Assembly (NCBI RefSeq): GCF_044324785.1
Contig: NZ_CP172128.1
Length of the DNA: 64,000 nucleotides
From: Escherichia coli
GTDB lineage: Bacteria > Pseudomonadota > Gammaproteobacteria > Enterobacterales > Enterobacteriaceae
Direction: 5' to 3' (one strand)
Made by a program: the position numbers. This document shows, one piece after another, positions 15,001 through 30,000 of this stretch. Position 1 is the first letter of the stretch, and each line of letters opens with the position of its first letter.

Positions 15001-18000
15001 TGCCAAGGGCTTTTGCCTCCGGGCTGCGCGCGATCACACAGCCATCGTTATTGCTGAGTACGATGACCGGTTCGTTGCGAAGGTCCGGGCGGAAAACTTT
15101 TTCACATGAGGCGTAGAAACTGTTGATATCAGCCAGTGCAAACATCAGCGTAACTCCCGCGTCCTGTGTATCACGTGAGTGACAACACCAAAAATACAGA
15201 TGTTTTCCGGATACAGTGTGCGGAACTCCGGGCTGTCTGAAACCGGCTCCAGTGCCGGGCGTGGGCGCAACAGCAGTCGTTTGACGGTGAACTCACCGTC
15301 GATCTCAGCGATAACGATGTCCCCGTGTTGTGGTTTTTCGGCCCTGTCCACTACCAGCAGATCACCATTCTGCACGCCAGCCTGGTTCATCGATTCACCG
15401 CTGGCGCGCAGAAAGAAGGTGGCTGCAGGTCTGCTGATGCAATAGCTGTTCAGATCCAGTTCCTGCTCAGCATAATCAGTGGCAGGCGAAGGAAAACCGG
15501 CCTGGCAACGATCGGCAAACAACGGTCGCACGTAACTGTCATCGCCTGAAGGGTCAGCCGGACGGTGATAAACGGTACTCATGCTGCAGGCAGCCAGCTG
15601 TCGTCCTGCCAGATTTCTTCCAGCAGAGACAGGATACGTTCTTTATCCTTGTCGTTGCGGGCTCCTGTGACAGATACAGACGGGGCGCTGCCCTGGTCTA
15701 TACGCAGCCAGATTTCCGGGTAGTGTGGTTTCAGACGTTGTTCGATTTCATTCTGTAGCGCCTGAAGTGTGCCTGATTTGAGGTTTTTGTGCTCTGGCGG
15801 TCGAAAAGAATTTCAATGCGGATCATGTTCTCATCTCCCTTTTCTATTGCTGTATGTATATACAGTATTCTAATAACTGAATCCACACACAGTCAAATGT
15901 CATTATTGTGACTAAAAAACGCTCAATTCTCTGAGGGTGTGGCTGTATGCCTGCTGTGGAGTGCTGTGTCCAGCTTATCCACAGCATTTTGTGCACGGTT
16001 CTGTGGACAAAATACCTGGTTACCCAGGCCGTGCCGGCACGTTAACCGGGCTGCATCCGATGCAAGTATGTCGCTGTCGCCGGCCTCCTCACCCGGTCAC
16101 GTTTCGTCGTTCCTCCTCCACGCGCTGCGGCTTCGGGGCCGCACCTGCATTCGTATGCGGTCGCCCGGTAACAGGTGCGGCACGGCCTGATGGAGGCCGC
16201 ATGTGAGAGGAGAATTCCCATGCCAAACTGGTGCTCGAATCGTATGTATTTTTCTGGTGAACCGGCACAGATCGCTGAGATTAAACGACTGGCCAGTGGT
16301 GCAGTCACACCGCTTTATCGCCGCGCCACAAATGAAGGTATTCAGCTGTTTCTGGCCGGAAGTGCCGGACTTCTGCAGACCACTGAAGATGTGCGGTTTG
16401 AACCATGCCCCGGACTGACGGCTGCCGGACGTGGTGTTGTATCTCCGGAGAATATAGCGTTCACCCGCTGGCTGACACACCTGCAGAACGGTGTACTGCT
16501 GGATGAGCAAAACTGCCTGATGCTGCATGAACTCTGGCTGCAGAGCGGTACTGGACAGCGTCGCTGGGAAGGATTACCGGACGATGTCAGGGATACCATC
16601 ACCGCACTTTTCACCGCAAAAAGAGGTGACTGGTGTGGCTTCTGGAGTAACGAGGATGTATCGGTGTGGTGGAACCGTCTGTGTGACAATGTACTGCCGG
16701 AAAAAACCATGCCGTTTGACCTGCTGACGGTTCTGCCGACCCGCCTTGATGTTGAAGTGAATGGCTTCAACGGTGGTGTTCTGAACGGTGTTCCTTCTGC
16801 ATATCACTGGTATACAGAACTGTATGGTGTGAAGTGGCCTTGTGGGTATGACCTGAATATCAGCAGTCAGGGGGAAAACTTCATTCAGGTGGATTTCGAC
16901 ACGCCGTGGTGTCAGCCGGAAAGCGACGTTATTGCAGCATTAAGCCGCCGTTTCAGCTGCACGCTGGAGCACTGGTATGCCGAACAGGGCTGTGATTTCT
17001 GTGGCTGGCAGTTGTATGAGCGCGGAGAGCTTGTTGATGTGCTGTGGGGGGAACTGGAATGGTCTTCCCCGACAGATGACGATGAGCTGCCGGAAGTCAC
17101 CGGACCTGCGTGGATAGTCGACAATGTGGCGCATTATGGCGGATGAAGTATGACGGAGACGGGCGGGAAACCGCCCGTTTCTTTTCCGACAAAGGATGTC
17201 GCCGGCGGCTCCGCTTTACCCGGCCATGCGGGGCATGGCCTTGTGGGTTTTCAACTCTGTAGCCTCAGCGTCGTGTGCGGGCTGTGCCGTGCCTCCATCG
17301 TAGCCGGGCTTCTGCGGGCGGGTTGCAAGGTAAGGTGAACCGCTGCGGTCACCCGGTCCCTCCTTCCCGTCTGCCGTGATTTTCCGGTCGTTCACCCGCT
17401 CAGATTTCGCGGTCTCACCCTCCAACTCCCGTCAGCCGTGTGCGTCAGGCTGCGGCTTCCCTTGCGCCCTTGCAACCCTGCAGGCCCGGCAAAGATGGAG
17501 GCACGGCACCGCCCGGTGTCGCGGAATATGTGAACAACGGAGGAAAACATCATGCAATATGCGAAACCTGTCACTCTGAATGTTGAAGAGTGCGACCGTC
17601 TCTCCTTTCTGCCTTACCTGTTTGGCAACGATTTTCTGTATGCCGAGGCGTATGTGTACGCGCTGGCGCAAAAAATGATGCCGGAATATCAGGGAGGCTT
17701 CTGGCACTTCATCCGCCTGCCGGACGGTGGCGGTTACATGATGCCGGATGGCGACCGTTTCCACATGGTGAACGGTGCAAACTGGTTTGACCGTACCGTG
17801 AGTGCTGATGCCTGCGGCATCATTCTGACTTCCCTTGTGATTAACCGCCAGTTGTGGCTGTACCACGACAGCGGGGATGCGGGACTGACACACCTTTACC
17901 GGATGCGCGATGCGCAGTTGTGGAGCCACATCGAATTTCACCCCGAATGCAATGCGATTTACGCGGCACTGGACTGATTAACGGACGGGGCGGCGATGCC

Positions 18001-27000: not shown

Positions 27001-30000
27001 ACAGCATGAACTGGCTGGACTGTTTTGAGGATCCGGCGCTTGCGGCTAAAATATACACAAAGCCGTTTCCGCTGGTTGATATCACTGTCGTTGATGACAA
27101 TGAAATCATGAACCATCGCCGGATGGCCGCACTGACGCTGCTGATGAAGCATATCCGCCATCGTGACATGATGGAGCTGCTGGACAAACTCCCGCAGGTC
27201 ATGGTGGAAATTTCAGACGAGCAGGTGCGTGTTCTGATTCATTACATCGTTAACGCAGGGGACTCTGTATCACCGGAATTTATGCGGGCGCTGGCTGAGC
27301 GTCTGCCGCAGCATGAGGATAAACTGATGACTATTGCCGAACGTCTTGAGCAGCAAGGAATACAGAAAGGAATACAGCAGGGAATACAGCAGGGAATACA
27401 GCAGGGAATACAGCAGGGAATACAGCAGGGAATACAGAAAGGCCGCATGGAGGAGAAGCAGGATATTGCGCGTCAGCTTCAGAAAACGGGAATGCCATCT
27501 GCACAAATCTGTCAGATCACCGGACTTTCCGAAGCTGAACTGAAGAACATCACTCACTGATGAGAACCACAAAGCCCGGCAAAATGCCGGGTTTTTTTGT
27601 CAGCAGGAGCAGAGCAAACAGCATGACGATTGCAGAACGTCTTGAGCAAAAAGGTCGCCAGGAAGGAGCGCTTGAAAAAGCCCTGGCCATTGCGTGCCAG
27701 CTTCAGAAAATGGGGATGACGCCGGAGCAGATTAAGCAGGCTACCGGACTGTCCGAAGCTGAACTGAAAAAAATCATTCACTGATGAGAGCATCACAGCC
27801 CGGCAGAATGCCGGGCTTTTTTGCCAGCAGGGGCAGAGCAGTATGACTATTGCAGAACGTCTTATACAGAAAGGTTTCGACGAGGGTTTTAAACAAGGTT
27901 TTAAACAAGGGGCTCTTGAAGTGGCGCGGGAAATAGCCTGCCGGCTGCGGGATATAGGCTGGCCGCCGGAACGGATTCAGGAGGTCACGGGACTTTCCGG
28001 TGAAGAACTGAAAAAGCTGTTTCCTGATGAGCAGTAGCCTGGCATTCAGCCAGGCTGTGAATCACCGCTCACACATCCTCTGCCGTTTCCCCCAGTTCAT
28101 TTTCCAGTCGCCTGATGATATCTGCCTTACGCATCCCCTGCATGTGAGGCAGCAGGTCACGGACTGAAAGAGCCTGGGTGGTCCTCCAGACGGTGACGTC
28201 CACCTGTTCCGCATTTTCCCAGGCGTGCCATGTTCTCTGCGTCACGCCAAATTCTCTGGCCGCTTTTTCGCGTGACCAGAGCATGCTTTTTCGCCAGATT
28301 CGCAGTTCCCAGCCGGTCATAAAACACCTTTGAAAAAGTGAAAAAACTTCACTTTATTTTATCATCATAATCATCAAATCAGCGCGATAAATAAGTGTAA
28401 AAAAATGAAGAAATTTCACTTTTTTTTGCTTGTAAATGTCGTGCGGTTTTCTCTGTTTTCACCTGTGCGGGAGTGGTGTGCCAGTGACCACCACATGCCA
28501 TTGTTGTGCCGTCGTTTTTCTTCAGTCGCGCCGTATGCGGCGCTCCCTGCACACCTTACGGTGTGTAAGGCCACTGCGCCTGATGGCGCAGCTGTCTCTG
28601 CCTGTCTGCCGCCGCACTGCGGCCTGTTCTCCGCAGACGGACTTTCCGGGGGTACATACATGACCACATCCCGTTTCAGTCGTCCAGGGGAGAGATGTAC
28701 CAGCCACAAAACTTTTTGCCGCAGGCGTCAAAAACTTTTGCGTCTGCCCCCGGACAACTGCCCCGTGACGTGGTGAGCGTCCCCCGTCGGAAAGGTCCAC
28801 TGCGGGGAAATCCCCGAAGACCCGGACGGCAGAAGGAGCTTCGCTCCTCCGGGAAATGACCTGGCTGACCCGGCAGTCGTGACGATGAGGAGACAATGTG
28901 ATGAATCAGACTTTACCCACTGCTGACCTGAATACTGCCGGCACGACAGATGTTATTCCGTCTGTGGCTATCGACCGCATCATCGCGCAGCGTAACGAAG
29001 GTATTGCACTGTTCATGCAGGCGATGGAATGCCTGGCGACAGCGCGCAAGATTCTGCTCGATGCGTCAGGTGATATTTTTCTTTACGGGTTTGAAGACTG
29101 CGTGACTGATTCCGTTCGTCGCATAGATAAACCGGAAGAAGCGAAAAGGAATATCACCCGTCTTGCCGACCGGAAAATCTGGGAGCGCCTGATGACAGAT
29201 ACGGGCATGTACACCTTCATGAGTTCATGCCAGCGTGATGAGTGGAACAGCCAGCTGATGAGCGACACCTGTCCTGAAATCACCCTGGACAATGTACTGG
29301 CAACATTCCGCCATCTGAATGCCTGCAAGATGCAGACATTTGAACAGGGACTGATTGATGTCTACCGGAAATTGTCATGGGATTACAGAACCAATAATCC
29401 CTGCCGTCTGGGTAAGAAAATCATTATTGAAAACCTGCTGTACCGCTGGAGTAACGGGCGTGTGACGCTGGACTGCAGCGGACGGGAGGCACTGGATGAC
29501 CTGGTACGTCCGTTTTATCTGCTGGAGGGGCGCAACGTTCCTGACTTCAGGAACAGCATCGGGGCGCAGTATGGTGAATTTCTCGGGAACGGCGACAATG
29601 TCGGTAAGCTGTTAGAAGGGGAATATTTTACGGTGCGTGGCTACCAGAAAGGGACCGTACACATTGTCTTTAATCGTTCTGACCTTGTTGAAAAACTGAA
29701 TGATATTATTGCACGGCATTATCCAGGTGTATTGCCGCCACGAGTCTGATTAAACAGAAAAGCCCTGGTATTTATGCCGGGGCTTTTTTTTCTGTAATCA
29801 TCATAATCTCAGAACACGATGTGACATTGTCACATCAATTGTTGTTCATATCGATGCCATCTTTCCTGCCTGAATCTGTCTTTTTAGGTGCTGTTTTAGA
29901 GGAAGAACGGCGGGATGGTTTTTTCGATTCTGCTTCCCGAATAATGTCACGAAGTGCCTTCTCTCCTACTTCATACCCTGCATTTTTGAGCGTGTCACGA

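Follow-up and report, generated by a model that had tools for sequence, protein, structure and literature searches.

A likely set of six Frpo/ssi/ssp single-strand DNA promoters in the leading region of an IncK2/Z plasmid of Escherichia coli

Six GC-rich structured repeats (elements A to F, in order of increasing coordinate) lie in the 64,000-nt stretch of Escherichia coli DNA analysed here (the window; contig NZ_CP172128.1 of assembly GCF_044324785.1), and their closest described relatives are the single-strand DNA promoters of the conjugative plasmids pESBL, F and ColIb-P9. In pESBL transconjugants, six leading operons are strongly induced, each of them located behind a large hairpin and endowed with a start mapped by 5'RACE (rapid amplification of cDNA ends); these pESBL homologues of our elements are silent in donors, and their induction on entry reaches ~500-fold (Wen et al. 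2025, PMC12672017). The hairpins were sorted into three classes: class 1 contains ssi1-3 and Frpo, class 2 consists of two similar hairpins located 5' of klcA and ardA, and class 3, located 5' of the M.EcoGIX operon, is unlike the others, classes 2 and 3 being conserved in F (PMC12672017). In F, early expression is lost when either Frpo1 or Frpo2 is deleted (Couturier et al. 2023, PMC9849209), and Frpo transcripts prime DNA synthesis, as summarized in PMC7690428 from Masai & Arai 1997. A 2026 preprint (10.64898/2026.01.09.698686) names the classes ssp1, ssp2 and ssp3, reports that ssp1 primes in vivo and describes, at F ssp2 (located between yffB and yfgB), a roadblock resolved by UvrD. We consider that the six blocks of the window are these known single-strand promoters (Frpo/ssi/ssp) in an I-complex plasmid leading region, with a probability of about 0.9. 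The two families of repeats and element A map one-to-one onto the published six-promoter layout; the finding is correct and already known.

By sequence identity, the window belongs to an IncK2/Z (I-complex) conjugative plasmid of E. coli, of which it represents the leading region. Positions 15500-30000 are 99.9% identical to the E. coli plasmid pLH10-b-1-A (typed IncK2/Z, MOBP, MPF_I), from which the relaxase annotation was taken, and related sequence is present in at least 5000 enterobacterial plasmid records. The annotated order is dinI-like/umuDC on the minus strand and, on the plus strand, DUF1281, klcA-like antirestriction, ssb, parB-like, psiB, psiA, ardA, small genes and DUF4942, beyond which come mobC-like, nikA and the nikB relaxase gene; NCBIfam matches confirm ssb, psiB and nikA/MobA, the klcA/ardB-like gene corresponds to Pfam PF03230 and ardA to PF07275. 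The nick-region motif of the origin of transfer (oriT), CATCCTG/T (Table 1), fits the IncP/IncI nick motif, YATCCTG/Y. Since this motif is on the minus strand, the minus strand is the transferred (T) strand, which enters the recipient towards lower coordinates, and since the leading genes are all on the plus strand, every leading gene has the T strand as its template. Collinearity with the IncI1 plasmid pESBL (NC_018659) extends over the entire leading region. The only large difference is the absence from the window of pESBL 54455-57009, a block that is missing here by comparison with both pESBL and F and that contains a small hypothetical gene, an M.EcoGIX-type single-strand methylase gene, DUF1380 and one further gene; the junction lies at ~17189-17204.

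A first-pass annotation of this DNA had described two families of GC-rich repeats, plus A as a sixth block, lying immediately 5' of leading-region genes and producing spurious open reading frames (ORFs) on both strands. A direct-repeat search and all-against-all BLAST establish that the repeats are real. B and D, announced as near-identical, are 92.1% identical over 355 nt (17192-17544 versus 24147-24500), and C, E and F do share long blocks, of 330-500 nt at 80-87% identity: 86.8% over 499 nt for C and E, 85.6% over 354 nt for E and F and 79.9% over 334 nt for C and F. Element A gave no match to the other five elements in the all-against-all BLAST. The GC content of the six blocks is 0.60-0.66, versus 0.514 for the whole window, and each block stops just 5' of a plus-strand gene, with the ribosome-binding site at most ~50 nt from the stem base. 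Numerous short ORFs, on either strand, overlap with the blocks. In two near-identical plasmids, "hypothetical protein" genes are even annotated on opposite strands over ssi3 and the module that precedes it (18826-19203 on the minus strand, 18648-19019 on the plus strand); these are most likely spurious calls in non-coding structured DNA.

Some limits and groupings have to be redrawn. The blocks are where they had been placed, but their limits were too generous: the class 1 cores are shorter than the blocks (Table 1), so that C and E, as first delimited, comprise a core homologous to the reference elements plus, upstream of it, ~220-370 nt that belong to a distinct structured module, and the start attributed to B is in fact the intrinsic terminator of the upstream gene, outside the repeat. 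Similarly, the division into two families plus A matches the three published classes, but A is a distant relative of B and D and not an unrelated sixth block.

Table 1. Features of the leading region. Promoter boxes are given on the T strand; scan minima are those of the 300-nt sliding scan.
Feature	Coordinates	Strand	Downstream gene	Fold (kcal/mol)	z	Scan minimum (kcal/mol)	Details
Element A hairpin, probable class 3 (ssp3-type)	16028-16186	minus	DUF1281 gene (ATG 16220)		-4.2	-70	-35 TTGCAT 16065-16060; -10 TAACGT 16044-16039; clamp GGCACGGC/GCCGTGCC, 16028-16035 paired with 16179-16186
Intrinsic-terminator-like hairpin	17160-17185	plus					CGGGCGG-GAAA-CCGCCCG then TTTCTTTT; directly after the DUF1281 gene; read from the sequence, not listed by the consensus scan
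Element B, class 2 (ssp2-type)	17188-17548	minus	klcA/ardB-like gene 17552-17977	-95.3	-5.8	-77	main hairpin ~17275-17515; -35 TTGCAA 17328-17323; -10 TACGAT 17302-17297; clamp GGCACGGC 17286-17293 paired with GCCGTGCC 17500-17507
Extra GC-rich module upstream of ssi3	18640-19006	minus		-102.3	-4.1		structured; outside the ssi3 reference
Element C core, ssi3 homologue	19007-19337	minus	ssb 19404-19931 (ssb-psiB-psiA operon)	-105	-9.8	-94	99.7% over 331/331 nt of ColIb-P9 "Frpo3"
Element D, class 2	24142-24508	minus	ardA 24508-25008	-91.9	-3.3	-73	hairpin ~24233-24472; -35 TTGCAT 24284-24279; -10 TACGAT 24258-24253; clamp 24242-24249 paired with 24457-24464
Extra module upstream of ssi2	25010-25360	minus		-106.6	-7.1		structured
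Element E core, ssi2 homologue	25361-25688	minus	ORF 25740-26174	-109.5	-9.0	-99	88.8% to ColIb-P9 "Frpo2"
Element F core, ssi1 homologue	28523-28851	minus	DUF4942 gene 28901-29749	-100.8	-9.3	-91	99.1% over 329/329 nt of ColIb-P9 "Frpo1"
oriT nick-region motif CATCCTG/T	30311-30318	minus					after a 17-bp-type inverted repeat; upstream of nikA (30403) and nikB (30747)

Elements F, E and C are the counterparts of ssi1, ssi2 and ssi3 of ColIb-P9, an IncI1 plasmid whose elements are said to go back to Bates et al. 1999 and Nasim et al. 2004. The alignment to characterized Frpo/ssi elements that the first-pass annotation had called for is clear-cut: on the minus strand, F is 99.1% identical to ssi1, E 88.8% to ssi2 and C 99.7% to ssi3 over the full 326-331 nt (BLAST), in the same order from oriT and in front of the same downstream genes, with ssi3 before ssb. 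The reference sequences were those of the supplementary table of Samuel et al. 2024 (PMC11541004). The two systems differ by the plasmid group (IncI1 versus IncK2/Z), by the divergence of E, the most diverged of the three, and by the structured modules present upstream of C and E, which are not part of the reference elements. These modules are 93% identical to each other over ~170 nt, a similarity that runs on into the cores: the segment 18837-19134, which covers the last 170 nt of the module and 128 nt from the start of the ssi3 core, matches 25191-25488 at 93% identity. Both modules also contain a small hairpin, GCGACCGGAACGGTCGC, that is found upstream of both Frpo copies of F as well.

The F-block and the C-block are 98.1% and 97.6% identical to their pESBL counterparts, respectively, and E is 94.2% identical to pESBL over a wider block (25000-25745) containing the core. 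The relationship with Frpo1/ssiD and Frpo2 of plasmid F (ssp1a/ssp1b) is more remote: the apical 80-135 nt match at 74-75% (BLAST), with a common A/T-rich palindromic apex, a common GTCCGGGGG/CCCCTGGAC stem, an asymmetric bulge on the 3' arm, the same role and the same place upstream of ssb, whereas the lower stem and the flanks are unrelated and F has two copies instead of the three found here. Besides the apex and the stem, the conserved features of class 1 include the TTG(T/C)GG motif and the bulge, ~10 nt long, with a conserved CAT on the far arm; compensatory changes occur at 14 of the 36 consensus pairs. Identity to characterized elements, on which their predicted function rests, thus supports the assignment of C, E and F to the class 1 (Frpo/ssi/ssp1) single-strand promoters.

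The folding of the T strand was assessed by a sliding scan of 300-nt DNA folds between 15000 and 30300, a kind of scan already used in the literature, with a threshold of -75 kcal/mol. The six elements account for six of the seven lowest-energy T-strand regions in this interval. Taken individually, all six fold far better than shuffled controls, in line with the first-pass annotation: none of 100 dinucleotide shuffles folded as well, with z-scores between -3.3 and -9.8. The T strand is more stable than its complement by 17-19 kcal/mol in class 1 (18.6 kcal/mol for F and 16.9 kcal/mol for E) and by 3-4 kcal/mol in class 2. The seventh region is internal to the parB-like gene (20286-22244), where the scan reaches -76 kcal/mol near 20650; the minus strand of 20600-20950 folds at -88.6 kcal/mol (z -5.5), and this coding region has no match to any of the promoter classes.

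Elements B and D closely resemble the class 2 hairpins of pESBL (5' of klcA and ardA) and F ssp2 (5' of yfgB): they are 87-89% identical to them and have in common with them the hairpin, both boxes (TTGCA and TAnGAT) and the genes that follow. More specifically, B is 89.2% identical to the F ssp2 region and 88.6% identical to pESBL, D is 88.9% identical to the pESBL element 5' of ardA, and in F both match, at 89%, the stretch immediately 5' of the klcA/ardB homologue. Their matches to Frpo'4, a computational candidate described by Samuel et al. 2024, are at 81% and 77%, respectively; the nhmmer E-values are 2e-118 for B and 6e-116 for D. The difference lies in the spacer, which in B and D is 5 nt longer on the non-template arm and 4 nt shorter on the template arm than in F and pESBL, pairing being kept. 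The idea that this spacer variant is rare was rejected: at least 2488 plasmid records are at least 95% identical over it. These similarities support the identification of B and D as putative class 2 single-strand promoters.

Element A is 97.5% identical to the DinI/DUF1281 intergenic region of pESBL, at the head of the M.EcoGIX operon, and 95.6% identical to F 52569-52885, and its hairpin carries TTGCAT-15-TAACGT on the 3' arm. Given its position and its identity to the only (sizeable) intergenic region heading the M.EcoGIX operon, A is probably a class 3 single-strand promoter. In pESBL, DUF1281 is followed by the methylase block, which is absent from this plasmid, so that A would drive only the DUF1281 gene, after which come the terminator and element B. 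Note that a divergent double-strand sigma-70 consensus, TTGACT-18-TAGAAT (15896-15867, minus), points towards dinI-like/umuDC and away from A; it is a conventional divergent promoter lying beside the single-strand one.

The class 2 and class 3 hairpins can be aligned with each other. The alignment brings together B and D, their counterparts in F (one copy) and pESBL (two copies), A and three candidates from metagenomes, and in all nine sequences a TTG and, further along, a TAnnnT are invariant on the gene-distal arm. These positions are the best conserved of the sigma-70 -35 and -10 boxes. The consensus structure pairs the -35 element, places positions -12 to -9 in an internal loop and pairs positions -8 and -7 again. 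The stem itself is well supported, with 95.3% of the cells paired versus 38-45% when the partner arm is slid, and with compensatory changes at 12 pairs versus 0-4 when slid, a figure reached by none of 500 shuffles. G-T cells outnumber A-C cells by 14 to 1, which favours folding of the minus strand. The first-pass annotation had also anticipated a stable hairpin forming a -35/-10-like duplex on the T strand; the hairpin is present in all six elements and the boxes are seen in B, D and A, but no canonical hexamers could be assigned in C, E and F. RNA synthesis may start near 17500 (B), 24460 (D) and 16180 (A), which would give leaders of ~45-50 nt.

Altogether, homology to the ColIb-P9, F and pESBL elements, orientation and folding support the reading of the blocks as ssi/Frpo-type promoters, as first proposed. 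What was established for this plasmid concerns homology, orientation, folding, conserved boxes and covariation, while transcription of single-stranded DNA, its transience, priming by class 1 and the UvrD-resolved roadblock of class 2 are carried over from the F, ColIb-P9 and pESBL homologues. By analogy with them, the minus strand would be led into the recipient by its 5' end, starting from the nick at ~30311, with F coming in first, followed by E, D, C, B and A. As long as it is single-stranded, each element would fold into a long imperfect hairpin, whose gene-distal arm would act as the non-template strand and whose gene-proximal arm would act as the template. The host sigma-70 RNA polymerase would bind this pseudo-duplex and, leaving the hairpin at the base of its stem, transcribe the operon that follows, i.e. 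the DUF4942 gene (F), the 25740 operon (E), ardA (D), ssb-psiB-psiA (C), klcA (B) and the DUF1281 gene (A). In B, D and A, the polymerase would meet a base-paired -35 element (TTGCA) and a -10 element whose upstream half (T-12, A-11) lies in an internal loop. Synthesis of the complementary strand would finally remove the hairpins and switch the promoters off, hence a transient burst of anti-restriction, SOS-inhibition and SSB (single-stranded DNA-binding protein) functions. Recognition of a folded single strand by a polymerase, with the help of SSB and with loss of activity in the duplex, is known from the early promoters of phage N4 and from the rolling-circle sso elements, although N4 relies on a virion RNA polymerase and on small hairpins, and sso elements make primers, not mRNAs.

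Several points weigh against the identification of the six blocks as single-strand promoters. (i) A relaxed linear scan of the T strand of five class 1 elements found no positionally conserved canonical -35/-10 (A-11, T-7) in C, E and F. Several registers proposed by eye for class 1 (TTGTGG-17-TGGACG, a -10 inside the bulge, a -35 at the loop) were considered, and none was convincing. (ii) The z-score of D (-3.3) is modest, and A folds equally well on both strands. (iii) The 20-nt spacer on the non-template arm of B and D would work only if bulges shorten the helical path. (iv) The function attributed to the elements of this particular plasmid is deduced from homology.

If the blocks are not primarily promoters, they might be mainly DNA-processing signals, that is, priming sites for the complementary strand (the original sense of "ssi") and/or replication roadblocks, expression being secondary. 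Both activities have been published, priming in PMC7690428 and for ssp1 in the 2026 preprint, the roadblock for F ssp2, a region that B matches at 89% identity; the class 2 hairpins are also long and stable. Priming and roadblock activities, however, add to promoter activity and do not replace it. Besides, every element is placed directly 5' of a gene, at the short distance from the ribosome-binding site given above, and a purely structural function leaves the invariant TTG...TAnnnT unexplained. We therefore regard a mainly DNA-processing role as very unlikely.

Even less credit can be given to the idea that the blocks are conventional double-strand promoter/operator repeats under the control of a plasmid repressor, as in the conserved upstream (CUP) repeats of the IncN leading region or the kor regulon of IncP plasmids. 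The array does look like the CUP arrangement, with repeated blocks ending at the start codons of anti-restriction genes, and the plus strand of B still reads TTGCAA-15-AAAGAT. Yet a linear scan of both strands for sigma-70 consensus sequences (-35/-10 with a 16-18-nt spacing) found none on the plus strand inside any element. In the duplex, the coding strand carries AAAGAT in B and AAGGAT in D, both behind a 15-nt spacer, and TAACAG in A; D keeps A at -11 and T at -7, whereas B and A lose T-12 or T-7. The duplex -10 is thus defective in B and A, which agrees with activity only as a folded single strand. Moreover, compensatory changes keep arms ~200 nt apart paired, something that a linear operator does not need, and the pESBL homologues respond to entry and are silent in donors.

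Least plausible of all are structured mRNA 5' leaders (riboregulators or genes for small RNAs) or selfish repeats of the REP/MITE type (repetitive extragenic palindromes/miniature inverted-repeat transposable elements) devoid of a transfer role: GC-rich dispersed repeats with dense inverted repeats are indeed typical of REP-like elements too and an RNA containing both arms would also fold, but Rfam gives nothing at gathering score in 15000-31000, the best matches being at chance level even at E up to 5, the G-T/A-C asymmetry and the class 1 strand advantage point to the minus DNA strand and not to a sense RNA, the predicted class 2/3 start inside the gene-proximal arm deprives the RNA of the partner arm, and F, IncI1 and IncK plasmids show synteny in both the position and the orientation of the elements.

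Reading the blocks as single-strand promoters, we can make small additions to the literature consulted: class 3 shares the class 2 core, the class 2 arms evolve in concert and the B/D spacer variant is widespread. As to the first, class 3 was reported to be unlike the others (Wen et al.), whereas here the stem core of A aligns with that of class 2, with the same block order and identical block spacing on both arms (nine-sequence alignment). A hidden Markov model (HMM) built from class 2 only finds A as its sole other match in the window (E=0.0064), and the metagenomic candidate Frpo*1 links A and class 2 by BLAST. As to the second, both class 2 copies of a given plasmid have nearly identical stem arms (47/49 and 51/52 positions for B and D, 53/53 and 48/48 for the pESBL pair), versus ~40/49 and 40/47, with indels, for orthologues from different plasmids; the between-plasmid differences in the arms (17275-17515 and 24233-24472) are compensating indels in the -35/-10 spacer. 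By contrast, the class 2 5' leaders follow the downstream gene (37/37 versus 21/35). That arms are alike within a plasmid and leaders follow the gene indicates concerted evolution of the class 2 copies, and the pattern of the arms is a sign of gene conversion between them.

A more speculative proposal, which we put forward tentatively and would rather bet against, is that A on the one hand and B and D on the other form one family with a GCCGTGCC/GGCACGGC-clamped core, to which class 2 adds a GC-rich apical extension that would be a candidate module for the UvrD-dependent roadblock, reported for F ssp2 and absent from ssp3. If this holds true, I-complex plasmids such as this one would have roadblocks at both B and D, these would prolong the single-stranded, transcriptionally active state of the ardA-proximal and ssb-psiB segments, and the concerted evolution of the stem arms within a plasmid would reflect selection on the roadblocks or recombination between them.

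Other features of the window were noted in passing. The STAXI motif is usually found near ssb, antirestriction and integrase genes and is suspected to act as single-stranded DNA. A full-length Rfam match to it (38366-38523, minus; 70.4 bits versus a gathering score of 40.5, E 9e-13) sits outside the leading region, between an IS100 (istA 36988-38010) and an element of the IS66 family; this copy looks orphaned by the insertion sequence (IS) insertions. An ORF encoding an Rpn-family nuclease (26508-27560) contains eight tandem 12-nt units (GGAATACAGCAG-like) at 27339-27466, and larger internal repeats of 150 nt lie at 27465-27616 and 27689-27840. Finally, two full-length matches to the sok antitoxin RNA (hok/sok-type) are found at 51473-51629 and 52193-52350, ~720 nt apart.

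For the window itself, the analysis puts six non-coding promoter elements in place of spurious ORFs, defines the transferred strand and reveals the absence of the methylase block. A description of the class 2/3 core at the sequence level could also improve the automated detection of such promoters. As for the biology of these plasmids, the elements would allow anti-restriction, SOS-inhibition and SSB functions to be expressed within minutes of entry, before the plasmid becomes double-stranded, which would make them central to the spread of resistance plasmids.

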